From NCBI GenBank assembly GCA_036502965.1, contig DASXXT010000098.1, positions 1 through 59,440 on the forward strand: a stretch of 59,440 nt of DNA. Direction: 5' to 3'. Within the stretch, counting starts at the first letter, position 1. The number at the start of each line of letters is the position of its first letter. Origin of the DNA: Roseiarcus sp. GTDB lineage: Bacteria; Pseudomonadota; Alphaproteobacteria; Rhizobiales; Beijerinckiaceae. This document shows positions 42,160 to 56,723 of the stretch, in pieces. The position numbers and the translations under genes were made by a program. The notes beneath the pieces are model-generated. The model saw nothing but the letters and a program-made list of their open reading frames with translations, made no database searches and was not told the origin of the DNA.

Positions 42160-43029
42160 GTGGTCAACTGGGAAGCCTTCATATCGCAATGTTTCAACGG
42201 GCTGGTGCTCGGCGCGCTTCTCGCGCTGATTTCCTCCGGCCTGACAATCATCTATGGTACGCTCGGCGTGCTTAACCTCGCGCACGGCGCGATGTTCATG
42301 CTGGGCGGCTATGCTGGTTGGGTTGCCTACGCTCATTCCGGATCGTTTATCCTGGCGGTTGTCGCGGGTTCGCTCTTTGTGATGCTGGTTGGGTTGCTGA
42401 TGGAGCGGGTGATTATCCGCCATTTCTACACGCGCCCGAACGAGGACCAGCTTCTTGTCACCTTCGGCCTTGGCATTGTCTTCGTGGAGGTCGTGCGCTT
42501 CTTCTTCGGCAGCCTCTCGAAAGCGGTTCCGCCGCCGATCGGCGGCACCACCTCGCTCGGCTTCATGGTTTATCCGACCTATCGGCTAGCCCTGCTCGGC
42601 TTGGTCACCGTGGCGCTGCTCGTGCTCTATTTCGTTCTTTACCGAACGCGCATCGGCATGATCGTACGTGCTGGAATCGAAGACTCCGTTACAGTCGATT
42701 CATTGGGGATCGACGTCTACAAGATCTTCATGCTGGTCTTCGGCATCGGCGCCATGGCCGCAGGTTTCGCGGGCATCGTCAATGCTCCAGTCGTCTCGAT
42801 CTCGCCTGACGTTGGCGAATCGATCCTCGTTCAGGCCTTCGTCGTTGTTGTCATTGGCGGCGTCGGCTCGTTTCCGGGCGCGGTGCTCGGAGGCCTCATC
42901 GCGGGCGAGATCATCAGCATCACGTCGATGTTCAATCCGGGCTATGCGTACGTCATGCTGTTCGTGGCGATGACGCTTGTGCTGGTGATCCGGCCCTATG
43001 GACTCCTCGGCGCGGCAGGCCGCGAGTGA
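42160..43029 (+). CDS. LivH-type permease
   Basis: GLTIIYGTLGVLNLAHG and VVVVIGGVGS. Confidence 0.9.
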   Translation: MVNWEAFISQCFNGLVLGALLALISSGLTIIYGTLGVLNLAHGAMFMLGGYAGWVAYAHSGSFILAVVAGSLFVMLVGLLMERVIIRHFYTRPNEDQLLVTFGLGIVFVEVVRFFFGSLSKAVPPPIGGTTSLGFMVYPTYRLALLGLVTVALLVLYFVLYRTRIGMIVRAGIEDSVTVDSLGIDVYKIFMLVFGIGAMAAGFAGIVNAPVVSISPDVGESILVQAFVVVVIGGVGSFPGAVLGGLIAGEIISITSMFNPGYAYVMLFVAMTLVLVIRPYGLLGAAGRE

Positions 43030-43042
43030 ACGCGGTCCACCT

Positions 43043-44878
43043 ATGAACATAAAGCATCCCTTCATCGCTGAAGCGCTGACAGTCATCGCGTTGATTGCCG
43101 CGCCCTTTGTGCTACCGCACGTAGGCTTCTCGCTCACCACCATCAACCGCATCCTGATTTGGGGTTTGTTCGGGCTCGGTTTCGATCTCTTGTTCGGCTA
43201 CACTGGCCTTCTGTCGTTCGGTCAGTCGGCTTTCTTCGGCACGGGCGGGATGTTCGCCGCCTACCTGCTCACCGAAGCCGACTTTCCATATGTTCTGACT
43301 TCGATCGTTATCGGCGCCGCGGTCGCCGCCATCGTTGGCTATCTGGTCGGTTTGATCGCGCTCAGGCGCACCGGCATTTATTTCGCCATGATCACGGTGG
43401 CGATCGCGGAGGTGTTCTTTTTCGTCGAGTTCAATCCATTGTCCACCTTCACCGGCGGAGAGAATGGTTTGCCCGGCGTGCCCACACCGAGCTTCAACCT
43501 CGGCTTTACGAAGCTGAGCTTCGACACCGACCTGTCGATGTATGCTTTCCTGGCGTTCTGGTATTTCGTCGGCCTGGTCATTGCTCTGCGCATCGTGCGC
43601 TCGCCCGTGGGAGCGATCTTCAGGGCGTTGCGCGATAATCCGCTGCGCGCCTCGGCCCTCGGTCACAGCATTCATGGCTACAAGCTCACCGCCTTCGTAA
43701 TCGCAGCCGCCTACGCCGGCTTCGCCGGCGGTCTCCTCGCCATCCTGCAAGGCTTCATGCCGCCGGATGCTTTCATGTTTGACACGTCCGGGCAGCTCGT
43801 GATGCAGACCGCAATCGGAGGCGCAGGCACGCTGTTCGGGCCGCTGATCGGCGCCACGGTATGGCTCTATCTAAGCGACTTCCTCCAGAATGCGCTTCAT
43901 CTTGGCGCGACCTGGAAGCTCGTGCTCGGCGTCGTGTTCGTGCTGCTTGTCTGCTTCCTGAGGCGTGGAATCGTCGGCGCGGTCGTCGACCTCTATCGAC
44001 TGGCGGCGGGCCATAGGAAGACAACCGAGCCGGTTGAGACGAGTGTCGAGCCAATCGCGCCGCCTGCCGCGGCCAAAACAATGCTGGCGGACCGCCCCCC
44101 TGCCGAACGCGCGCCTGGACCGATTCTAGAGGCGGCGGGCTTGACCAAGCGCTATGGCGGCCTGGTGGCCAACAGCGATATCGATTTCGTCGTCAACCGT
44201 GGTGAATTGCGAGGCATTATCGGGCCGAACGGGGCAGGCAAGAGCACCTTCTTCAAGATGCTGACCTGCGAGACGGCGCCGACGTCAGGCAGGATCGTAT
44301 TCGAAGGCCGAGATATCACCGGGATGAGCGTCACCGACGTCTGCCAGCTCGGACTCACCAAGAGTTATCAGCTCAATCAGCTTTTCGAACGCCTGACAGT
44401 CAGGCAGAACCTCAGGGTCGCGGCGCTTGGCCAGATTCGCGGCAAGTTCAAGCTCGATCTGTTCCGCAGTCTACATGACGTTCCCGGCCTCGACGATCAG
44501 GTCGACCAGACGCTGGCGCTCGTCAATCTGACCGAGCGACCGGACACGCCGGTGTCGGAGCTTGCCTATGGCGAGAAGCGGCGACTCGAAATTGGGCTGG
44601 CGCTGGCCACCCTGCCAAGCCTGCTTCTGCTCGACGAGCCTCTTGCAGGCATGAGCCCGCGAGAGCGCGTCGAGACGGTCGCCCTGCTCAAATTGATTGC
44701 GCGCGGGCGCACGATGATCATCATTGATCATGACATGGACTCGCTGTTCGAGCTGGTTGAAAGGGTAACCGTGCTGCAGGAGGGCCGCGTGTTGGTGGAG
44801 GGCACGCCCGAAGAGATCAAAATCAATCCGAAGGTGCAGGAGGCCTATCTCGGCGGCGTTCACGGAGAGGCAGCGTGA
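43043..44878 (+). CDS. Fused LivM permease and LivG ATPase
   Basis: GYTGLLSFGQ and GIYFAMIT, then GPNGAGKST and LAYGEKRRLEI. Confidence 0.9.
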   Translation: MNIKHPFIAEALTVIALIAAPFVLPHVGFSLTTINRILIWGLFGLGFDLLFGYTGLLSFGQSAFFGTGGMFAAYLLTEADFPYVLTSIVIGAAVAAIVGYLVGLIALRRTGIYFAMITVAIAEVFFFVEFNPLSTFTGGENGLPGVPTPSFNLGFTKLSFDTDLSMYAFLAFWYFVGLVIALRIVRSPVGAIFRALRDNPLRASALGHSIHGYKLTAFVIAAAYAGFAGGLLAILQGFMPPDAFMFDTSGQLVMQTAIGGAGTLFGPLIGATVWLYLSDFLQNALHLGATWKLVLGVVFVLLVCFLRRGIVGAVVDLYRLAAGHRKTTEPVETSVEPIAPPAAAKTMLADRPPAERAPGPILEAAGLTKRYGGLVANSDIDFVVNRGELRGIIGPNGAGKSTFFKMLTCETAPTSGRIVFEGRDITGMSVTDVCQLGLTKSYQLNQLFERLTVRQNLRVAALGQIRGKFKLDLFRSLHDVPGLDDQVDQTLALVNLTERPDTPVSELAYGEKRRLEIGLALATLPSLLLLDEPLAGMSPRERVETVALLKLIARGRTMIIIDHDMDSLFELVERVTVLQEGRVLVEGTPEEIKINPKVQEAYLGGVHGEAA

Positions 44879-45573
44879 GCCTGCTCGAAGTCACGGGACT
44901 CAACGCCTATTACGGGGACAGCCACATCCTGTTCGACGTCTCGCTGCGGGTCGAGAAGCATGAGGCTGTGGCGCTTGTCGGCAGGAATGGAGCCGGCAAG
45001 AGCACCACGCTCAAGAGCCTGATGGGCATCGTCGCCCGACGCAATGGCAGCATCAAGCTCGATGGCGTCGAGCTCGTCGCTCAGAAGGCTCACACCATCG
45101 CGCGCCTCGGCATGCAGCTTGTGCACGAGGATCGGCGCATCTTTGGCAGCCTTAGCGTGGAAGAGAACATCATCCTCGCCGGGCTCACCGCCACGAACAA
45201 ATGGCCGCTCGAGCGCATTTACGCCATGTTCCCCCGCCTGAAGCAGCGCCGCGCTAGCCGCGGCACGGACCTTTCCGGAGGCGAACAGCAGATGTTGGCG
45301 ATTGCGCGCGCGCTGGTGCGCGATCCGAAGATCATCCTGCTCGACGAGCCTTTCGAGGGACTGGCTCCAATCATCGTCCAGGATCTGATGCATACATGCC
45401 GTGAGCTGGCGCGAAGCGGGCAGACCATCGTGCTGGTTGAACAAAATTTGGCCGCGACGCTCGCGCTGGCGGGGCGCGTTTACATCCTCAATAACGGCCA
45501 TATCGCCCATGAAGGCCCCGCCGCGGAGATCAAAGCGCAGCCCGGCCTTCTGCAGCGCTATCTAGGCGTCTAG
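44875..45573 (+). CDS. LivF-type ABC ATPase
   Basis: [17 protein letters not shown] and LVEQN. Confidence 0.92.
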   Translation: MSLLEVTGLNAYYGDSHILFDVSLRVEKHEAVALVGRNGAGKSTTLKSLMGIVARRNGSIKLDGVELVAQKAHTIARLGMQLVHEDRRIFGSLSVEENIILAGLTATNKWPLERIYAMFPRLKQRRASRGTDLSGGEQQMLAIARALVRDPKIILLDEPFEGLAPIIVQDLMHTCRELARSGQTIVLVEQNLAATLALAGRVYILNNGHIAHEGPAAEIKAQPGLLQRYLGV

Positions 45574-46183: not shown

Positions 46184-47113
46184 ATGCCGCTCGCCTCCAA
46201 GCGTCAAGCGAGCGACGGCTCGGCGCTATGGTGGGGCGGCGCCGATACGCCCGGGCCGTCACAAATCGTCGCTCCCGGCGCTCAAGCGCCTGTTTTGGTG
46301 GCCGTCTCGCCGCTGCGGCCGGGTCACAGCGTTGCCCTGGAATACCGCGTCAACCGAGGCCCCGTCCGCGAAGCCATTGGCGTGCTCGAGCCGCGCATCC
46401 ACGACGCCAAAGCACGGATTTTTCGAGCGGTTGTGCCGGGGCAATCGGATGGGCTGGTCGAGTTCCTGCCGGTGCTTCGTTTCGCAGGTCAGCCGATTTC
46501 TGCCCGTCTCTCGGAGTTGGAACAATGTCCGCGGTATCAGGTGGGTTGCGGCGCCGCGCCAGTTACGACCTCAGACTTGCCGCCCGGGACCGCGCCTAGG
46601 TTAGCTGACGAGTCTCGCTGGCGGTGGCACGCGAAATTCCTTGGCGCCTGCACGATCCAGCTGCGCAAGGAAGTGGTCGGTGTCGTGCCGGAAGGCTTCC
46701 GGATCATCTGGCACTTTGAGGAGGCGCGCTTCGTCGGACCGGTTCTCGAAGGGCGTTTCCTGCCCGGCGCCGCCGACTGGATGCACATCCGCCCGGATGG
46801 CGTCGCAATCGTCCAGGTCCAGGGGTGCATCGAGACGCGTTCCGGCGCGCGCATCTACACTTCCTATGGCGGCAGCCTCGAGCTGGGCCGAGACGGCTAC
46901 GCCCGGGCGCTGCGCGGCGAGTTCGATTCGTGGCCGCCGTTCGTGTGCGCGCCGACCTATGCGACGGCCGACAAGGACCTCGATTGGCTTAATCGCGCGC
47001 AGTGCCTCATTGTCGGCAGGGTGGACATGAAGGCGCTCAGGGTCGAGTCTGACGCCTACTTCATCGAGGTTGGGGGACGAAAAAATTCGCATGAGCGCCA
47101 GCACGGGCGTTGA
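46184..47113 (+). CDS. Two-domain protein: unknown N-terminal beta domain plus C-terminal DUF3237 (UPF0311) beta-barrel
   Basis: ATG 46184 with GGAG RBS; C-terminal VGVVPEGFR, GRFLPGAADW..IRPDG, IETRSGARIY..YGG and PTYATAD..LDWLN. Confidence 0.8.
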   Translation: MPLASKRQASDGSALWWGGADTPGPSQIVAPGAQAPVLVAVSPLRPGHSVALEYRVNRGPVREAIGVLEPRIHDAKARIFRAVVPGQSDGLVEFLPVLRFAGQPISARLSELEQCPRYQVGCGAAPVTTSDLPPGTAPRLADESRWRWHAKFLGACTIQLRKEVVGVVPEGFRIIWHFEEARFVGPVLEGRFLPGAADWMHIRPDGVAIVQVQGCIETRSGARIYTSYGGSLELGRDGYARALRGEFDSWPPFVCAPTYATADKDLDWLNRAQCLIVGRVDMKALRVESDAYFIEVGGRKNSHERQHGR

Positions 47114-47217
47114 GGCTGGATCCGCTAGGAGCCGAGTTTCATTGTGCTTCAGATGAAGAGCATTCCGTTTCCGTTTTGAAATGAACCTTAGGGCAACTTA
47201 ACCGGAGGGGCGCCGAG

Positions 47218-48147
47218 ATGCCGAACGACCCGCAAGTCCCGTGGACCGACGAGCAGTGGGCCCGCGTCAACCAGGTTGTCCAGGAGGAAGCGAAGCGGGC
47301 CCGCGTCGCTGCGACCTTCCTGCCGTTATACGGACCGCTTGAGGCGGATGCTGATTACGTGCGGGATCAGGGCATTACGTATCCATTCATCGCTGGTGTT
47401 CCACCCCAGCAGTTGGCGATCGATGACAGGGACACGATGAGGCTTGCGACGTTGCAGGTGCCCGTGCCCGTGCGCAACGCACAGATGGCCGATCCCGAGA
47501 TGACCAGCGCGCTGGCGGTGTTTCGCCGCGCCGCCAATGTGCTCGCTCGCCTCGAGGACGCCGTGGTCTTCAGGGGACTGGCGCCGGATCCCGCCAATCC
47601 GGGCGGATTCGCGCCTCCAGCAGGGATCGGCGGTCTGCCAGGCATCTGGGGGATTACGGGCGCGCTGGACGCCCAAGGAATTTGGAGACTACTACCTCCT
47701 CTTCCTCCTCCCGGCCGGGCGATTGTCATTCCGGCAATGCCGATCGTGGGGAGAAGCGAGCGGCTCGTTACCGCAATATCCGACGCCATAGGCCGACTGG
47801 AGGGGAACGGACACTTCGGACCGTTCGCCGCGGTGCTTGGTCAACAGCTGTTTCTTGTCGCGCAGACTCCGGACCCGGGTTCGCTCGTGCTGCCGCAGGA
47901 CCGCATCATCCCGTTCCTCGGCGGCGGTCCGCTGCTCCGTTCCTCAACGCTCGACGAGTTCAGAGGGTTCACCGGCGTGGTCATAGCGCTTGGCGGCGCG
48001 CCGATCGAGCTCGTCGTCGCGACGGACATGTGCCTCCAGTTCCTCCAGGTTACAGCCCAGCCGGCATTCCTGTTCCGGGTGTCCGAGAAGATCGCGCTTC
48101 GCATCAAGGAGCCTGCCGCGATCGTCCAACTCTATATGCTGCCATAG
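47218..48147 (+). CDS. Family 1 encapsulin nanocompartment shell protein (Linocin M18 / HK97 fold)
   Basis: WTDEQWARVNQVVQEEA..ARVAATFLPLYGPL, AANVLARLEDAVVFRG, AISDAIGRLE.NGHFGPFAAVLG, GGAPIELVVATD and FRVSEKIALRIKEPAAIVQL are colinear with known Family 1 shells; strong GGAGG RBS. Confidence 0.88.
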   Translation: MPNDPQVPWTDEQWARVNQVVQEEAKRARVAATFLPLYGPLEADADYVRDQGITYPFIAGVPPQQLAIDDRDTMRLATLQVPVPVRNAQMADPEMTSALAVFRRAANVLARLEDAVVFRGLAPDPANPGGFAPPAGIGGLPGIWGITGALDAQGIWRLLPPLPPPGRAIVIPAMPIVGRSERLVTAISDAIGRLEGNGHFGPFAAVLGQQLFLVAQTPDPGSLVLPQDRIIPFLGGGPLLRSSTLDEFRGFTGVVIALGGAPIELVVATDMCLQFLQVTAQPAFLFRVSEKIALRIKEPAAIVQLYMLP

Positions 48148-48273
48148 GACTTCCCGGATCAGGCACAAAGCCGCGCCGATCAGGAGTGGCGACAAAGACC
48201 TGTAAGGCAATTGCGAACGCGCGCCCTGCGACCATCGTCACAGCGTCAGTCGCAAAAAAAGGAGTGCATAGGA

Positions 48274-48561
48274 ATGGCAAAGTATATCGAATTTAGCATC
48301 TCCCGCGACGATTTGCCTCAAGCGCACCCCGAATTCCCCTTACGCCAAGTCGGCTTAGACGAGAAGGACTTTGACCTCAGGAACGCAAAAGTGTGGGCCG
48401 ACGACGCATCCGTGGAGGTGACGGTACGAGAAAAAGATCGGCTCGTCGTGAAAGTTCCGCTCGCGAGCGGCAAGCCGCGGACAATTGCAGTGACCACCCA
48501 GAACGGAAAGCTCATCGGAATTCTGGAAGGGGATAAAATACCGGTGGGCAAAGAAACGTAG
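48274..48561 (+). CDS. Small hypothetical protein (95 aa), possibly an IPT/TIG-like Ig fold
   Basis: AAGGAG RBS, start MAKYIEF; beta-strand pattern V.V....DRLVVKVP...G..TIAVTTQNG. Confidence 0.65.
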   Translation: MAKYIEFSISRDDLPQAHPEFPLRQVGLDEKDFDLRNAKVWADDASVEVTVREKDRLVVKVPLASGKPRTIAVTTQNGKLIGILEGDKIPVGKET

Positions 48562-48612
48562 CGCAAGGACCATCAAATGGTCAGGGGACCGAAGCCCAGC
48601 GCGCCATGACAC

Positions 48613-51573
48613 ATGCCGACTAAGGTCATCGTACTAGGCGGCGGCGTCGGGGGCATGAGCGCCGCGCACGAGCTGGTCGAGCGCGGCTTCGAGGTTGTTG
48701 TGCTCGAGCGCAGCGACTTAGCGGGCGGCAAGGCCCGCAGCATTCCCGTGGTCGATGTCGGCGAGGACACGAGCGGACATCAGCTCGCCAGTGGCGCCGT
48801 GGGGCCCATCGAGCACCGGTTGCCCGGCGAACATGGATTTCGATTCTTCCCGGGTTTCTACAAGCACGTCGTCGACACAATGCGCCGAACGCCGTCGTTT
48901 GATGGACGACAGGTTGCGGACCATCTGACACCGACCACGCGGGTCGGGATCACTCAGTACGTGAAGCCCGACTTCGTAACGCCGGCGGTCTTTCCGCTCA
49001 CGCCCGGTGACGCCGGCGCTCTGCTGCGCGACATTCTGCTGGCGTTCGACCCCAACACGGATCTCACGCCAGACGACCTCGCTTTCTTTGGGGCGCGCGT
49101 CTGGCAAATCCTGACCTCGTGTAACGAGCGCCGGCTTGGAGAGTACGAGAGGATAAGCTGGTGGGACTTCATCGGGGCTGAGGGCCGCTCAGCGGTCTAC
49201 CAGAAATTCCTCGCAGTAGGCATCACACGCTCGCTGGTCGCCGCCAAGGCGCGCAAGGCCAGCACGCGCACGATCGGCGATGTTTTCGTGCAGCTCATGC
49301 TGACCATCATGAATCCGACCGCGGGATCGACCGACCGGGTGCTGGACGGCCCGACCAATCTCGTCTGGATCGACCCATGGCTTGCCTATCTCGAATCGCG
49401 CGGCGTGCGATACGTCAAGGGCGCTCAGATCGAGGAGATTCTCTGCACTAACGGACGAATTGCCGGCGTCGTCGTCGACCAGCAGGGGAAGCGAGCCGTC
49501 GCGACCGGCGACTTCTACGTGGCAGCGCTGCCGATCGAGAGAATGGCCCTTTTGATGAACGCCAGCATGTTGGCAAGCGACCCCACGCTCGCCAACTTGC
49601 GCACGCTCGCCGCCAATGTGGAGTGGATGAACGGCGTCCAGTTCTATTTGCACCGCAACCTGCCAACCACGCATGGGCACGTGATTCACATCGACACGGA
49701 ATGGGCTCTGACCAGCATCTCTCAGCTCCAGTTCTGGCATGATGTGCCGCCCGAGTTCTTCCGGGACAGCGAAGTTCATAGCGTCTTGTCGGTCGACGTT
49801 TCGGACTGGACCGCTCCGGGATCGACCGGGCGCGCCGCGATCGACTGCTCGCGTGAAGAGGTAGTGCGCGAGACATGGAGTCAGCTCAAGCGCTCCATGA
49901 ACTCCGGCGAGGAATTGCTGCGCGAGGATGATCTGCACTCATGGTTCCTCGACCCGGACATCAGCAGCGATCCCGCGACCCCGGATCACCTCACCAATGG
50001 CGAACCGCTGCTCGTCAACCTCGTCGGCACATGGGCGTTACGTCCAGAAGCGACCACAGGCATTCCGAACCTGTTTCTCGCGTCGGACTACGTGCGCACG
50101 TACACTGACCTCGCGACCATGGAGGGCGCCAATGAGGCGGCGCGCCGCGCGGTCAATGGACTGCTCGACGCCGTAGGCTTCGCCGGCAGCCGCTGCGAAT
50201 TGTGGCCTCTGCACGAGCCTGAAATCCTCCAGCCGTGGCGACTCTACGACGCAGCGCGATACCAAGCGGGCCTACCTTGGGACAATTCCCTTGTGCAGGT
50301 GGCCGCCCATGCCATACGCGGCGCCTCGCCGCTCCTTGAAGGGGCGCGGCCGTTATTTGAACGCATCGCTCCATTCGTGAAGAGCGCCGCCAGCGTCCTC
50401 GAGCTCAGCGATCGAGCCGTTCCGAACGTGCGCGAACTGAGCGCGGCCGACCCAGTCGAGATACGCCGGTTCGCTGGTTTGTCTGCGCCCCAGGCCGCGA
50501 TGCTGAAGATCGCCGAGCCCCTGTCCGGCGCCAGCGATATCCTCGGGCCAGCGGGCTTTCTCGAGCGCCTGAGCTGGTACCGCGAGATGCTGAGCGACAC
50601 GCTTGCAGAGGGAATTCCGAGTTGGGAGCCGCAGCGGCACCTTTACGGGCTCGTGAGAGATTTTCTTGAGCGATCGGGGAAGGGTCTACGCCCTGCCCTT
50701 TGCATCGCGACCGCGAGAGCGTTAGGCGGGCGAACGGAGGATGCGCTTCCGGCCGCCGCCGGCCTGGAAATGCTGCACAATGGGTTTCTCGTCCACGATG
50801 ACATAGAGGACGGCAGCGATTGGCGACGCGGCGTCGCCACGATGCATCGCAGCGCGGGAATTCCAATTGCCCTGAACGCCGGCGATTCCATGAACGCGCT
50901 CGCCATGCGCCTTTTTCGCAAGACCGGCGAGCGAGTGGGACCGGTGGCCGGGATCCGGATCTTCGAGGAAGTTGATCACCTGGTCGTCGAGACCCTCGAA
51001 GGGCAGGCCATAGAGCTCGGCTGGGTGCGAGACAACGATCTCACGGTCACGACGGACGACTATCTTCGTCTCGTGCTGAAGAAGACCGCTTGGTACAGCT
51101 TCATTCACCCGCTGCGAATCGGCGCCCTTCTCGCCAATGGCGACGATCGGACTCTGGACCGGTTCGATCGCTTCGGCTACCTGCTCGGGGCGGCGTTCCA
51201 GATCACCGACGACGTCTTGAACCTCAACGGGAACGTTGCGCGATACGGCAAGGAGATCAACGGGGATCTCTGGGAGGGCAAACGCACCCTTCTGCTCACC
51301 CATGCCTTTGGCCAAGCGAACAGCGCGGACCAAGCGTGGATAAGGAATTTTCTGGCGAGGCCGCGCGCGCGCCGCCTACCGCGCGAGGTGCTGCGGCTGC
51401 ACGATATCATCGCAAGCCACGGGAGCATCGAATGGGCGCGTCAATCGGCGAACGCATTTGCTGAAGCCGCGGCGCGCGAGTTCGACGCCTCAGCATTCGT
51501 TGGAGCGCCCGCGAGTCCCGACCTCGACTGGCTTCGCGCTTGCGTCGACTACCTCGTGCGGCGCGACTCGTAG
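48613..51573 (+). CDS. Fusion of an FAD-dependent oxidoreductase (phytoene/zeta-carotene desaturase/HpnE-like) and a trans-polyprenyl diphosphate synthase
   Basis: N-terminal GGGVGG..AA.EL, GGKARS, EHGFRFF and NLFLASDY...ATMEGA; C-terminal GKGLRP, FARM HDDIEDGS..RRG, GQAIEL, KKT, SARM FQITDDVLN and GDLWEGKRT. Confidence 0.9.
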   Translation: MPTKVIVLGGGVGGMSAAHELVERGFEVVVLERSDLAGGKARSIPVVDVGEDTSGHQLASGAVGPIEHRLPGEHGFRFFPGFYKHVVDTMRRTPSFDGRQVADHLTPTTRVGITQYVKPDFVTPAVFPLTPGDAGALLRDILLAFDPNTDLTPDDLAFFGARVWQILTSCNERRLGEYERISWWDFIGAEGRSAVYQKFLAVGITRSLVAAKARKASTRTIGDVFVQLMLTIMNPTAGSTDRVLDGPTNLVWIDPWLAYLESRGVRYVKGAQIEEILCTNGRIAGVVVDQQGKRAVATGDFYVAALPIERMALLMNASMLASDPTLANLRTLAANVEWMNGVQFYLHRNLPTTHGHVIHIDTEWALTSISQLQFWHDVPPEFFRDSEVHSVLSVDVSDWTAPGSTGRAAIDCSREEVVRETWSQLKRSMNSGEELLREDDLHSWFLDPDISSDPATPDHLTNGEPLLVNLVGTWALRPEATTGIPNLFLASDYVRTYTDLATMEGANEAARRAVNGLLDAVGFAGSRCELWPLHEPEILQPWRLYDAARYQAGLPWDNSLVQVAAHAIRGASPLLEGARPLFERIAPFVKSAASVLELSDRAVPNVRELSAADPVEIRRFAGLSAPQAAMLKIAEPLSGASDILGPAGFLERLSWYREMLSDTLAEGIPSWEPQRHLYGLVRDFLERSGKGLRPALCIATARALGGRTEDALPAAAGLEMLHNGFLVHDDIEDGSDWRRGVATMHRSAGIPIALNAGDSMNALAMRLFRKTGERVGPVAGIRIFEEVDHLVVETLEGQAIELGWVRDNDLTVTTDDYLRLVLKKTAWYSFIHPLRIGALLANGDDRTLDRFDRFGYLLGAAFQITDDVLNLNGNVARYGKEINGDLWEGKRTLLLTHAFGQANSADQAWIRNFLARPRARRLPREVLRLHDIIASHGSIEWARQSANAFAEAAAREFDASAFVGAPASPDLDWLRACVDYLVRRDS

Positions 51574-51745
51574 TGGGGAATTGTGCGCATTGAGCGGTGT
51601 GATAATACTGTGTTTTTGTACCCGATCAGTCCGGTTGAAACATCGGTGTCTAATGGATTTCGACGGGGCGTCGGAGCGTTACCTCGAGCAGGTTGCGCCG
51701 GAAGGGCCTAAGTAAGGGGAGAGCCCCCAAGCTACGGAGAGCCGG

Positions 51746-54700
51746 ATGCCGGGGATTAGAGAGTGGCTGAATTCGCACGGTTTCTCTGAGTATGCGGATC
51801 GCTTTGCCGACAATCGGATTGATCTTTTCGTCCTACCGGACCTTACGGATGATGATCTTAAGGAACTTGGCGTACTACTGGGGGATCGTCGGCGAATTCT
51901 GCGTTTAATTGCCGAGCTCGCCCCCGAGCCGCAAGCCCCCGCTATGCCCGGGTCGCGCCCACTTGAAGGGGCGGAGCGGCGCCAAGTCACGGTGATGTTC
52001 GCTGATCTGGTCGGGTCGACGGCGCTCTCCACCGGCATGGACCCGGAGGATCTGCGAGACGTCTTTGCCGCCTATTCGAGCTGCGCCGAAGAAACGGTGA
52101 CCAAGTTCGGTGGAAACGTCGCCCAATACATGGGGGATGGCATCCTGGAGTACTTTGGCTATCCGCACGCTCACGAAGACGACGCCGAGCAAGCCGTGAG
52201 GGCTGGGCTTGAACTCATCGCGGCGGTCGCCGGACTAAAGACACGCGTTCCCCAGCAGCTCAGAGTCGGCATCGCGACAGGAGTGGTCGTGGTAGGCAAT
52301 CTGACCCCGAGCATCGTCGGCGAGACCCCGAACCTTGCGGCGCGCCTCCAGAGCATCGCCAAGCCCAACATGGTTGTTATCAGCGAAGGCACCCGGCGGC
52401 TTCTTGGGCATCTCTTCGAGCTCGAGGACCTAGGAACGCAGGACTTGAAGGGTATTTCAGCGCCGGTGCAGGTCTGGGCGGTCCTTCGGCCAAGTTCCTC
52501 GACGAGTCGCTTCGAGGCGCTGCACCCGACCGGGATGACGACCCTCGTCGGCCGCGAAGAGGAATACGAATTGCTGCGGCGCCGGTGGTCGAAGGCAAAG
52601 GAAGGAGAAGGCCAGGTCGTGCTTCTGTCCGGCGAGGCCGGTATCGGAAAATCACATCTCACGGTCGCATTTACCGAACGTCTCAAGGACGAGCGTTTTC
52701 TCCGCATCCGTTGTTTCTGCTCTCCGCAGCACACCAACAGCGCGCTCTATCCTATCATCGACCATGTAGAACGCTCCGCTGGTTTTGCGCGTGACGATTC
52801 GCTGCAAACGAAACTCGACAAACTCGATGTCGTCCTCCGACAGTCTTGGTCCTCAGCCGAGGACTGCGCGCTCTTCGTCGAGATGCTGTCGCTGCCCAAC
52901 GATGGGCGCTATCCCGCGGTCGAGCTCGCGCCTCGGCAGCGCCGTCTAGCAACGATGGACGCGCTTGTCAGGCAAGTGGAAATTCTGTCCAGCTCGGGCC
53001 CGCTGCTCGTGATCTTTGAGGATGCACACTGGGCCGACCCTACGAGCCTGGAGTTGATGGGTCGGCTAGCGAGCCATATTGCGAGCCATCGCGTGCTACT
53101 GGTCATTTCCTTCCGGCCCGAATTCGAGTCGCCCTGGATTGAGCAGGCGCACGTGACCGCCCTCGCCCTCAGCCGGCTTGCGCCTCGCGACGTCGACGTC
53201 ATGATTGATCACATCGTCGGCAACAATCCGCTGCCTGCCGCCGTCCGCCAAGACATAATCGAACGAACGGACGGGATTCCGCTGTTCGTGGAAGAGATGA
53301 CGAAAGCCGTGCTCGAGACGACCTCCGAGGACGCGGCGCGGCGGATCGCCGCCTCGGTTCCCTCTCCGGCGATGGCTGTGCCGGCAAGCCTGCACGCGTC
53401 GTTGATGGCGCGGCTCGACCGCCTCGGCGGTTCCAAAGAACTTGCCCAGATCGGAGCTGCTATCGGCCGCGAATTCTCGCATGAACTCCTGCTTGTAGTG
53501 GCTTGCAGGCCAGAGGCGAAGCTGGAAATGCAGCTCGACCGGCTTATTCGGGCCGGGTTGCTGTTCCGCCAGGGCGTGCCGCCCGATGCAACCTATTTTT
53601 TCAAACACGCCCTCGTGCAGGATGCGGCTTATAGCCTGCTGCTACGCGAGCCGAGACGTCACCTTCATGCTCGAATCGCCGAAACCCTGGAGAGCAAGTT
53701 CAGCGAGATCGCCGAGAACAAGCCCGAGTTGATGGCCCGTCATTGCGCGGAGGCGGGCGATATCGAAAAAGCTGCGGCGCTTTGGGGGAAGGCCGGGCAG
53801 CGATCGGCGGAGAGGTCGGCTTTGGTTGAAGCCGCACAACAGCTCAGATGCGCGCTCGACCTGATCGCGACCTTGCCAGGCACGCCCGCGCTGCGCCGCG
53901 AGGAGATCAAGCTTCAGGTCGAGCTCATCACTCCGCTCCTCCATGTGCGCGGCTACGCGGCGCCCGAAACCAGAGCCGCCGTGGATCGGGCGCGTCTTCT
54001 TATGGAACAAGCTGAAGAGATCGGAGAGCCCCCGGAAGATCCCCTGTTGTTGTTCTCCGTTCTTTACGGCCTGTGGGTCGCGAGCCTTGTCGGCTTCAAT
54101 GGGGAAGTGACGCGAGAACTTGCCGTCCAGTTTTTGGCGCTGGCCGAGGCGCAGAGCGCGACCGGGCCGCTCATGATGGCGCATCGCCAAATGGGTTTGT
54201 CCCTCCTCCATACCGGGGACATCGCAGACGGACGAGCCCATCTCGATCGCGCGATTGCGTTTTACGATCCGGCCGAACATCGTCATCTGGCGACGCGTTT
54301 CGGGCAAGACGTTGGCGCTTCGACCTTGGCGTGGAGGTCGCTGGCTTTGTTACTGCTCGGCTATCCCGAAGCCGCGCTTGCGGACACCGGGCAGGCGCTC
54401 AAGATTGGGCGTGACAGCGCTCACGCGGCGACATTGACCTACGTGCTGAATTTCAGCGTTTTCCAGCATGTCTATTGTGGCCATTTCGCAGCGGCAAATG
54501 CGCTCATCGATGAATTCAACATATTGAAGGATCAGATCGGGTCCGTGTCTTGGGGTGGATGGGGATTGGCGTTAAGAGGTTGCGTATTGGCAGGGACGGG
54601 AAAGGCCGCGGAAGCGGTTCAAGACATCGCCTCCGGCATCGCCGCGAATCGATCAAGAGGAAACACGATGTGGACGCCCCTGTTCTTGTCATATCTGGCG

Positions 54701-55111
54701 GGCGCCAACGCAGAAATCGGTCAATTCAACGCAGCCCGGACCAACATTCGCGAAGCGATGACCGCGGTGGAGACAACCGAGGAGAACTGGTACGAAGCTG
54801 AGATCAATCGCGTCGCCGGAGAAATTGCGTTGCTGGAGACGGAACCGGATGCGGCAAAGGCGGAAGCCCATTTCGCCCGGGCGCTGGAGATTGCTCGGAG
54901 ACAGCAGGCAAAGTCTTGGGAACTCCGAGCCGCAATGAGCATGGCGCGCCTCCTGTGCGCTCAGGGCAAGCGAGACGGTGCGCGCGACATTCTGGCTCCA
55001 GTCTATGGCTGGTTCACGCAGGGCTTCGACACGCTCGACTTGCGGGAGGCGAGGCTATTGCTTGAGGAACTGGCGCAAGACCAGCCAATCAATGCGACCC
55101 TGAGCTTATGA
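51746..55111 (+). CDS. SAM + class III nucleotide cyclase + STAND (AAA_16) ATPase + TPR-like protein
   Basis: SAM (WLNSHGFSEYADRF..DLKELGV), MFADLVGST, MGDG, NLAARLQ, Walker A GEAGIGKS, Walker B FEDAHWAD, GIPLFVEE, FKHALVQD and SWELRAA. Confidence 0.92.
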   Translation: MPGIREWLNSHGFSEYADRFADNRIDLFVLPDLTDDDLKELGVLLGDRRRILRLIAELAPEPQAPAMPGSRPLEGAERRQVTVMFADLVGSTALSTGMDPEDLRDVFAAYSSCAEETVTKFGGNVAQYMGDGILEYFGYPHAHEDDAEQAVRAGLELIAAVAGLKTRVPQQLRVGIATGVVVVGNLTPSIVGETPNLAARLQSIAKPNMVVISEGTRRLLGHLFELEDLGTQDLKGISAPVQVWAVLRPSSSTSRFEALHPTGMTTLVGREEEYELLRRRWSKAKEGEGQVVLLSGEAGIGKSHLTVAFTERLKDERFLRIRCFCSPQHTNSALYPIIDHVERSAGFARDDSLQTKLDKLDVVLRQSWSSAEDCALFVEMLSLPNDGRYPAVELAPRQRRLATMDALVRQVEILSSSGPLLVIFEDAHWADPTSLELMGRLASHIASHRVLLVISFRPEFESPWIEQAHVTALALSRLAPRDVDVMIDHIVGNNPLPAAVRQDIIERTDGIPLFVEEMTKAVLETTSEDAARRIAASVPSPAMAVPASLHASLMARLDRLGGSKELAQIGAAIGREFSHELLLVVACRPEAKLEMQLDRLIRAGLLFRQGVPPDATYFFKHALVQDAAYSLLLREPRRHLHARIAETLESKFSEIAENKPELMARHCAEAGDIEKAAALWGKAGQRSAERSALVEAAQQLRCALDLIATLPGTPALRREEIKLQVELITPLLHVRGYAAPETRAAVDRARLLMEQAEEIGEPPEDPLLLFSVLYGLWVASLVGFNGEVTRELAVQFLALAEAQSATGPLMMAHRQMGLSLLHTGDIADGRAHLDRAIAFYDPAEHRHLATRFGQDVGASTLAWRSLALLLLGYPEAALADTGQALKIGRDSAHAATLTYVLNFSVFQHVYCGHFAAANALIDEFNILKDQIGSVSWGGWGLALRGCVLAGTGKAAEAVQDIASGIAANRSRGNTMWTPLFLSYLAGANAEIGQFNAARTNIREAMTAVETTEENWYEAEINRVAGEIALLETEPDAAKAEAHFARALEIARRQQAKSWELRAAMSMARLLCAQGKRDGARDILAPVYGWFTQGFDTLDLREARLLLEELAQDQPINATLSL

Positions 55112-56058
55112 GTCGACGGGCCTTCTTGAATGCGGCAGATGCCACTGGCGACCTCCAGGCGCGTGATGCCCTGCGGCTGATGCAGGTCGTCCCCGCCGCG
55201 AACGGCAACTGTGTGGTCGATTCGGCGCATCTCGTGGCGCGCGCCCTCGCTATCCTCGACCAAGACAAGATGAGCGGCGCCGCCCACTACCGGGAAGCGA
55301 ATATCGCGGGCGGACTGCCGACCCGATCGGTCGGTCTCGAACCGACCCCAGCGGCCGACCTCACGCTGCAGCGGCGCGTCCTCAGCGATGGCGCGGAGTG
55401 TTTTTTGCCGATCCGCTACTTCGACGTTCAATGCCTCGTCGCCACCTTTTTGGTCGCGCCAAATCAGGCCTCCGAGCTTCTAGTGGCAGGCCTGCAACCG
55501 GTCTTGCAGGAGGATGGAAAAGCCGTCGTCGATCTCTTTTGCATCGAGTATCGCAAGACTGATATCGGCCCTTACAATGAAGTTGGTCTGACTGTCCGGG
55601 CGAAGGCGCCGGGCGATCGGATTCCTGCCAACTATGTGGTGAACCTCCCCGTCACCACTGCGGTCGCGAACCAAGCAGGCCGGGAGATTTGGGGCTACAA
55701 CAAGTTCGTCGCGGCCATTGATGTCAACAGCAACGGCAAGGCGTTCTCCACTGCTTTGCGCGATAGCGACAATGAGACCATTTGCGCGCTTGAGGGAGAG
55801 CGAGGCGCATCGGTTCCAACGCCGGCGACCGACATACTCACCTTTACCCTGCATCAAGGTCGACTGATAAAAACGGTCATCAGAGTGCTGACGCCGTCCC
55901 TCGCCAGCAGCGGCGACAGTTTTGTGTTCAAGGTTGGGATGTCGAGGCATCCGATGACGCGCAACCTGCGGACCGTCGCGCTCGATGAAGCGCGTCCCGT
56001 TCTCATACAGTACACTGACCCGTTTCAGGCTCTCTTATTCCCTGGTCGGGCTCTCTGA
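55108..56058 (+). CDS. Acetoacetate-decarboxylase-like (ADC superfamily) protein with an N-terminal extension
   Basis: IEYRKTDIGPYNE, LPVTT and GREIWGYNK (Schiff-base Lys position); ATGA overlap with the cyclase gene. Confidence 0.82.
   Translation: MSRRAFLNAADATGDLQARDALRLMQVVPAANGNCVVDSAHLVARALAILDQDKMSGAAHYREANIAGGLPTRSVGLEPTPAADLTLQRRVLSDGAECFLPIRYFDVQCLVATFLVAPNQASELLVAGLQPVLQEDGKAVVDLFCIEYRKTDIGPYNEVGLTVRAKAPGDRIPANYVVNLPVTTAVANQAGREIWGYNKFVAAIDVNSNGKAFSTALRDSDNETICALEGERGASVPTPATDILTFTLHQGRLIKTVIRVLTPSLASSGDSFVFKVGMSRHPMTRNLRTVALDEARPVLIQYTDPFQALLFPGRAL

Positions 56059-56288: not shown

Positions 56289-56723
<435 letters not shown>

Follow-up and report, generated by a model that had tools for sequence, protein, structure and literature searches.

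A Family 1-type encapsulin gene in a recurrent operon with isoprenoid-type enzymes and candidate non-canonical loading tags in Roseiarcus sp. and other bacteria

We analyzed a stretch of 59,440 nucleotides from Roseiarcus sp. (contig DASXXT010000098.1 of assembly GCA_036502965.1; hereafter the window), in which a gene for an encapsulin shell protein lies among genes for isoprenoid-type enzymes. Six co-directional open reading frames (ORFs) on the + strand were found between livF (44875-45573) and glnK (56385-56723), with the same place and domains as in a preliminary description made from the sequence alone. In order, they encode a two-domain protein composed of an N-terminal domain of about 120 aa without a family name and a DUF3237 barrel (46184..47113; Pfam E 3e-20, residues 155-292), a Family 1-type encapsulin shell protein with the HK97 fold (47218..48147), a small, fast-evolving accessory protein of 95 aa (48274..48561), a 986-aa fusion protein (48613-51573; Pfam Amino_oxidase E 5e-15 and polyprenyl_synt E 1e-57), a protein composed of SAM, class III nucleotide cyclase, STAND ATPase and TPR parts (51746..55111; Pfam and NCBIfam matches to SAM, cyclase, AAA_16 and TPR), and an acetoacetate-decarboxylase-like (ADC) protein with a low-complexity N-terminal extension (55108..56058; PF06314 E 1e-19). 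The fusion protein begins with an FAD oxidoreductase domain, assigned by fold to the phytoene desaturase (PDS)/HpnE-like group (48613..50280), and continues with a trans-isoprenyl diphosphate synthase domain (50551..51573; PF00348 E 1e-57). The intergenic gaps are 104, 126, 51, 172, and -4 bases, the start of the ADC-like gene overlapping the stop of the cyclase gene, and the G+C content of the block (0.60-0.65) is level with that of the rest of the window. As the reading frame of the DUF3237 gene is already open from about 45650, its start codon could not be placed with certainty. A sigma-70 promoter scan gave no match.

The shell protein scored 64.5 bits to PF04454, above the gathering cut-off of 24.3, and 80.9 to the NCBIfam model encap_f1 (NF041155), below the cut-off of 100, with the score split by an insertion. 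The expectation that it would pass encapsulin models thus held for the first model and not for the second, and the proposed membership of Family 1 agreed with the searches of Pfam and NCBIfam, which returned only these two models and neither a Family 2 shell nor a cyclic-nucleotide-binding (cNMP) domain. Relatives of the shell in Ruegeria also bear a family 1 shell annotation. A structure model by AlphaFold2, built from 31 sequences, reached a pLDDT of 91 and contained an N-terminal helix at residues 11-28; its best fold matches were the T=4 (6nj8) and T=3 (EncA) Family 1 encapsulins, with TM of 0.70-0.73 by query and E of ~1e-20, which were closer than viral capsid models (TM <=0.65, E 1e-13 at best). 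Two insertions near residues 55-65 and 121-178 are hypervariable, and the C-terminus is variable too. A profile search collected 316 representatives at E 1e-30 and, judged by these sequences, the shell belongs to a large and distinct branch within the Family 1 type.

To describe the surroundings of this branch, we used 45 related loci from a genome scan, of which six with short flanks were dropped to leave 39 for synteny counts; the loci share kinship, 29 of the 45 coming from one series of metagenome-assembled genomes (MAGs), and the counts are not independent. Within 10 kb of the shell, the FAD oxidoreductase, the polyprenyl synthase, and the cyclase-STAND gene were each present at 39/39 loci and DUF3237 at 37/39; before the flank filter, the numbers among all 45 were 41 for FAD, 41 for the synthase, 43 for cyclase-like genes, 40 for DUF3237, and 23 for ADC. 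A gene for ADC or for ADC2, a second, distant ADC-like family found at some loci, was present at 24/39. The recurrence that had been anticipated beside shell homologs was therefore seen for DUF3237 and the prenyl synthase, whereas ADC turned out to be accessory. Because the gene set recurs in 37-39 of the 39 loci, the six-gene arrangement is not a product of chance. The titles of the records name Bradyrhizobium, Variovorax, Ideonella, and Roseiarcus, and they cover Alpha- and Betaproteobacteria, Gemmatimonadaceae, Acidobacteriota, and Actinomycetota. On two Ruegeria plasmids, a compact five-gene block (cyclase, shell, DUF3237, FAD, and synthase) stands amid unrelated genes, with the FAD gene listed on one plasmid and an FAD-sized gap in the gene table of the other.

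The linkage was also followed in the reverse direction by a search with the FAD domain, which took in the 77 top-ranked loci from a scan of part of the metagenome data and required at least 1.3 kb upstream. A shell gene was found beside FAD relatives of at least 60% identity at 21 of 22 loci. The trees of the shell and the FAD domain from the 45 loci agreed broadly (patristic r of 0.91), with 10 of the 20 well-supported shell splits recurring in the FAD tree and a shell tree 2.3 times longer. Among genomes, the operon was present in 8/36 relatives of the genus and in 0/24 from other families of the order; the shell was not found in 400 genomes taken phylum-wide, and it is therefore rare outside certain genera. 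Comparison of five regions showed two relatives in which the cyclase alone adjoins glnK, in one of them between livF and glnK, and a third that retains a fragment of the synthase and a degraded copy of a helix described below. These remains point to loss of the operon block with the cyclase left behind. Partial second copies of FAD or synthase genes were seen near the operon at L032:10573-12568, L004:18015-18407, and L100:191, and the upstream ABC operon of the window contains a LivM-LivG fusion of permease and ATPase (42998-44878, 626 aa), which close relatives have as well.

The shell gene showed a dN/dS (ratio of nonsynonymous to synonymous substitution rates) of 0.10 over core columns against its nearest relative (L001). 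Many shell copies from MAGs carry frameshifts, at 1.58 events/kb compared with 0.80 in the enzyme gene. Pseudogenization was considered as the cause and rejected, because all the breaks belong to the one MAG series that contributes 29 loci, 11 loci from isolates or other series are free of them, and most of the frameshifted copies still evolve at a dN/dS of ~0.1; assembly error, perhaps made worse by strain variation, is the most likely source. Judged by these rates, the PF04454 match, and the model, the gene encodes an intact Family 1-type encapsulin and is under purifying selection.

Several shells of the branch are fused to other domains. C-terminal TIG domains are present on at least seven (L014, L017, L032, and four others), N-terminal TIR domains on two (P0152 and P0179, both singletons on short contigs without context), and ADC2 domains, 59% identical to each other, on the N-terminus of two different sequences (P0001 and P0003). 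A further candidate, P0002, was set aside as a STAND-shell fusion, because the first residues of its shell are absent and it is probably a frameshift artefact. A 3.3-kb contig (L033:1-3262), as assembled, holds two divergent, head-to-head shell genes, one of which is an ADC2 fusion, and a CARDB Ig-like gene follows the shell at L113.

With respect to the core enzymes, the model of the FAD domain (pLDDT 86) was nearest in fold to rice phytoene desaturase (5mog; Z 33.5, rmsd 2.6, 444 aligned residues), the next match having a Z of 26.3. The resemblance to the PDS/HpnE group lies in the fold, whereas the identity is 17% and the bit scores remain below every NCBIfam cut-off (HpnE 67/283, PDS 44/569, ZDS 41/622); the window protein also differs in the fusion to a prenyl synthase and in the lack of a phytoene or squalene synthase gene in its operon. 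Relatives carry the RefSeq-type name 'hydroxysqualene dehydroxylase', and the helices that follow the FAD domain look amphipathic in a low-confidence model. FAD relatives without a shell (L082, L095, L119, L111, and L120) adjoin response-regulator cyclases, histidine kinases, or STAND/TPR genes, and from these neighbors a sensory role of the flavoenzyme group is possible. In addition to its PF00348 match, the synthase domain has both conserved aspartate-rich motifs (HDDIED and DDVLN) and is nearest, among solved structures, to the geranylgeranyl diphosphate (GGPP) synthase 1wmw (E 8e-49). Five residues ahead of the first motif stands a G or an A, in place of the W of 1wmw, a difference that could permit a longer chain. 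A phytoene desaturase-like flavoenzyme and a trans-prenyl synthase are thus supported by motifs and fold as the core enzymes, in line with the isoprenoid chemistry that had been proposed. A head-to-head condensing enzyme is encoded elsewhere in 5/5 of the other host genomes checked.

DUF3237 members include PhnH, an alkene hydroalkoxylase that cyclizes onto an alkene, and the decarboxylases PhcF/G and PinX (PMC11969235, PMC12607616, and PMC9942872, in the parts available). The window protein shares the barrel family with PhnH and PhcF/PhcG/PinX; it differs in the added N-terminal domain, which matches unnamed clusters only, and its barrel profile reaches PhnH (6jjs) weakly (E 6e-4). It is predicted to be a cofactor-free cyclase, hydratase, or decarboxylase. 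The ADC-like protein had no real match among solved structures. It retains a conserved lysine in GREIWGYNK, which may correspond to the Schiff-base lysine of ADC.

The distant ADC2 family occurs fused to DUF3237, to a globin, or to a P450-like or catalase-like domain, the last identified by our own view of the sequence. In Bradyrhizobium, a 1063-aa protein encoded directly upstream of the operon joins ADC2 to a DUF3237 barrel and to a heme domain with a weak likeness to P450 (L006:5086-8277 and L009:4936-8127), and L004 has an ADC2-DUF3237-globin fusion. In 25 of 120 ADC2 matches (P0027-type), ADC2 stands behind a domain of 210-320 aa without a name; at L100:5226-9613, a SnoaL-like gene comes after such a fusion, together with a gene for an apparently catalase-related protein. 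Among the stand-alone ADC2 proteins (P0004-P0122), many have a conserved C-terminal tail that is basic and strand-like (RVRI...AVVLRPKR). A molybdopterin aldehyde-oxidoreductase-type cluster precedes the operon at L003:4431-8395 and L032:379-4234.

The cyclase protein of the window keeps its metal-binding aspartates, NxAARL, and Walker A. Of the 39 loci, 24 have a cyclase-STAND gene of the SAM type and the other 15 a zinc-ribbon paralogue of ~33% identity; the strand of the gene relative to the operon is not the same at every locus. The SAM-cyclase-STAND gene stands alone at the same chromosomal site in relatives without the rest of the operon, and close cyclase-STAND genes were found in 23 of 61 genomes, mostly without a shell. 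A zinc-ribbon-like start of the DZR cyclase type remains ahead of the DUF3237 gene at L004, L006, L009, L020, L080, and L110, which suggests that a DZR cyclase was deleted and replaced by the SAM type there. At L083, a gene for a cNMP-binding protein comes after the operon; ORFs of equal length occur at L084 and L085. In PADLOC (library of 2023), the cyclase matched generic PycC cyclase domains, beyond which only generic Rossmann matches were returned; there was no model for the shell, DUF3237, the small ORF, or ADC.

The preliminary description had noted the absence of the usual Family 1 cargo, and this was confirmed, as none of the canonical types with a GSL-type peptide (DyP, Flp, IMEF, hemerythrin, Bfr, or fusions) adjoins the shell. 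The genome, which is 83% complete and holds one PF04454 gene, gave no match to DyP and no protein with a classical GSL-type (LxxGSL) C-terminus. Across the loci, the operon proteins held no such peptide either, and the sequence LTIGSL was rejected as one, its sole occurrence being inside a neighboring gene.

A candidate shell-binding tag of another kind was found in the variable N-terminal extension of the ADC-like protein (55219..55269, + strand). It is a conserved, predicted amphipathic helix with the consensus DPxDLVARALAILxEE, usually single-copy, and the window genome has one match. A matrix scan placed the helix in 41 of the 45 genome loci, two of which have two copies, and each of the 13 metagenome loci that it matched has a shell. 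It matched nothing in the 200 kb of 32 shell-less loci, and a control with reversed sequences gave 2 matches, both <18 bits. The matrix was trained on 20 ADC copies, and the 29 matches on non-ADC hosts therefore escape circularity. Most of these hosts are free small ORFs, rich in Pro and Ala, directly ahead of the operon; the helix is also at the N-terminus of the 2Fe-2S subunit of the aldehyde-oxidoreductase-type cluster at two loci (L003 and L032; the copy at L022 is without it) and at the C-terminus of two ADC2 proteins, so that its hosts are of four unrelated kinds. Its third codon positions vary synonymously, and the constraint therefore acts on the protein. Among the 61 whole genomes, strong matches (E 4e-9 or better) occurred in 8, all shell-positive and on the contig of the shell, and in 0/52 shell-negative genomes; one of the 9 shell-positive genomes is without the helix, and two shell-negative genomes gave weak matches (E ~1e-3 to 1e-2). 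Given the cyclase-STAND genes in 23 of these genomes, the helix tracks the shell more than the cyclase-STAND family.

A second candidate tag was found on unfused oxidoreductases, in which a variable linker leads into a C-terminal G[RK]Vx[IL][IL]P in 106 of 120 close homologues by the strict pattern, the other 14 being mostly near variants. This tail was absent from 10 oxidoreductase homologues with no shell gene seen, and the motif was not found in the proteins of the window. Loci with the tail had no helix wherever the flank allowed the comparison, and this distribution suggests that helix and tail may be two alternative tags. Relatives of the 95-aa ORF were recovered by an iterated hidden Markov model (HMM) search in 21 loci, always directly upstream of the FAD gene. 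The protein is possibly Ig/TIG-like, with no family over its cut-off and a weak likeness to TIG. When it was compared with the shell-fused TIG domain, of which it might be a split-off copy, hhalign gave a probability of 5% over 29 columns. Read-through from the shell into this ORF was considered as well and rejected; the frame is continuous and open in the window, yet this is so in 3 of the 19 loci with both parts.

In the literature covered, the compartments of Family 1 encapsulins serve iron storage or hold peroxidases and use short GSL-type peptides, terpenoid cargo being confined to Family 2. The window shell resembles the T=3 and T=4 Family 1 shells (Myxococcus xanthus EncA and the Quasibacillus thermotolerans IMEF shell) in PF04454, the N-terminal helix, the HK97 fold, and the best sequence and fold matches, but it is 22-25% identical to them in structural alignments, has the two hypervariable insertions, and belongs to a system in which ferritin-like and DyP cargo and a GSL-type peptide are absent and TIG, TIR, and ADC fusions are optional. 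Like the Family 2B terpene-cyclase and polyprenyl-transferase (PT) operons (2-methylisoborneol, geosmin, and PT), the locus places a shell beside a polyprenyl synthase and tailoring genes with a link to cyclic nucleotides. In contrast, its shell is of another family and without the cNMP-binding insertion, its synthase is below the cut-off of the Family 2 cargo model NF041169 (193.9 versus 450) and without the long disordered N-terminus, and a PDS-like flavoenzyme partner and a cyclase gene are included in the operon.

The same operon type is represented in the data table of PMC8346489 (Andreas and Giessen 2021) by two 'Minor' Family 1 operons, A0A4Y9URH8 and A0A356RFE7, with DUF3237 at -1, an uncharacterized gene at +1, and an FAD oxidoreductase at +2; in the accessible parts of that source, they stand without cargo, discussion, or analysis of motif, fusion, or range, while polyprenyl transferases are placed in Family 2 and 90 Family 1 systems are unassigned. 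The available part of a 2025 review (PMC12746231) treats terpene synthases as proven cargo of other encapsulins and complex operons without recognizable targeting peptides as an open problem, and it lists no cargo of this type; the parts available of PMC13669383 and PMC13608877 held nothing relevant to the operon. Searches for encapsulin with DUF3237, geranylgeranyl and oxidoreductase, desaturase and prenyl, acetoacetate decarboxylase, or TIR/STAND/cyclase returned no description, subscription papers and preprint supplements being outside the search. Thus, the claim of an undescribed system stands as to description, but two members had already been tabulated, and we regard the locus as an undescribed Family 1 operon type that was tabulated earlier without description in the accessible material, the drawing in Fig. 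S1C of PMC8346489 aside. New in this analysis, at the level of sequence, are the putative helix tag, the tail of the unfused oxidoreductases, and the natural ADC-like-shell and TIR-shell fusions.

Taken together, the tight linkage of the shell, FAD, synthase, DUF3237, and cyclase-STAND genes, the agreement of the trees, and the tracking of the shell by the helix lead us to propose, with a probability of about 0.5, a conserved operon around a Family 1-type shell that packs a small isoprenoid pathway, in which a polyprenyl chain is made and then desaturated or otherwise modified. In this proposal, the synthase domain would make a trans-polyprenyl diphosphate of C20 or longer, and the fused PDS-like flavoenzyme would alter the oxidation state of the chain or of a prenylated product to give a hydrophobic, probably oxygen-sensitive polyene. 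The DUF3237 barrel may carry out ring closure, water addition, or CO2 removal by acid-base catalysis, as do PhnH and PhcF/G, and the optional ADC-like, heme, and aldehyde-oxidoreductase partners may tailor or clear carbonyl and peroxide species. The shell would shield the intermediates from membranes and cytosol. Loading would rely on non-canonical tags, with the DLVARALAIL helix serving at loci that have a fused oxidoreductase-synthase and the C-terminal G[RK]Vx[IL][IL]P tail at loci with separate enzymes, and the cyclase-STAND protein would tie the pathway to a cyclic-nucleotide signal, in either direction. A point in favor of packing is the fusion of ADC2 to the shell N-terminus, since PMC8346489 places N-terminal fusions in the interior of Family 1 shells.

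Several observations weigh against this proposal. Its weakest points are the fused enzyme of the window, which has neither helix nor tail to account for its loading, and the missing substrate of the desaturase-like domain: the operon holds no phytoene/squalene synthase, phosphatase, or prenyl acceptor, and PF00494 had no match in the genome. Below 60% identity, FAD relatives adjoin a shell in 9/19 loci only and are without one in 10/19. The helix could instead bind the cyclase, given that the free helix ORFs overlap the start codon of the zinc-ribbon with which the cyclase, or what is left of it, opens and that the ADC gene with the helix overlaps the cyclase gene at its end; it is equally possible that the tail docks to the free synthase and not to the shell. 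Both ADC2-shell fusions are singletons on contigs of 2.5 and 3.3 kb.

These points leave room for other explanations of the locus. In a possible though rather doubtful one, the operon would be a signaling or conflict device, in which the cyclase-STAND protein senses a cue, the product of the prenyl/flavin enzyme is a lipid signal or a pigment, and the shell is a platform for signaling or effector domains. The constant presence of a cyclase-STAND gene drawn from two different paralogues, the TIR domains on two shells, the longer shell tree and a shell dS (synonymous substitution rate) often above that of the enzyme, the cyclases and kinases beside shell-less FAD relatives, and the patchy occurrence in the genus are all consistent with it. 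However, the TIR fusions are singletons, close cyclase-STAND genes mostly occur without a shell, and PADLOC yielded the generic PycC match and lacked models for the other parts. It is unlikely that the shell instead stores or coats a hydrophobic product, with the enzymes outside, the helix protein as an assembly scaffold, and the Ig-like parts as surface decoration. The single-copy helix, often on a free, enzyme-less small ORF, the untagged core fusion of the window, the C-terminal TIG domains, and the amphipathic look of the helices after the FAD domain would fit such a store, but ADC2 is fused at the inward-facing shell N-terminus in two sequences, and the unfused oxidoreductases end in a linker and motif typical of loading peptides.

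We consider it quite improbable that this is an ordinary Family 1 shell with a DyP or ferritin-like cargo encoded elsewhere and neighbors that merely co-travel. Orphan shells with distant cargo exist, and a cargo gene may be missing from an incomplete genome; nevertheless, neither DyP nor an LxxGSL-type C-terminus was matched in it, the linkage holds across phyla in both directions (from shell to FAD and from FAD to shell), and the shell is below the NCBIfam cut-off and has a large group of its own. A phage capsid in decay, or a pseudogene, could be argued for from the HK97 fold and the frameshifted MAG copies, but this reading has only a minute chance of being right, as the model is closer to encapsulins than to viral capsids, phage and viral collections gave no match to the shell, the isolate and other-series loci are unbroken, and dN/dS is low even in most of the broken copies.

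The packing of an isoprenoid pathway by a Family 1-type shell can be extended, tentatively and with less confidence, to a widespread Family 1 branch that would serve as a multi-enzyme isoprenoid organelle, with a loading code of its own in which a portable amphipathic helix and a C-terminal strand alternate, swappable tailoring and TIR domains, Ig-like domains on the surface, and a cyclase-STAND protein that ties a polyene to cyclic-nucleotide signaling. The shell cluster is likely to represent an undescribed kind of bacterial nanocompartment in soil bacteria of several phyla, with a new packing tag. Non-canonical loading, the packing of several enzymes, and an isoprenoid product become directly testable through this operon, which crosses phyla, has cultured hosts, and offers natural fusions and two candidate tags; a new pair of tag and shell could also serve in building enzyme compartments.

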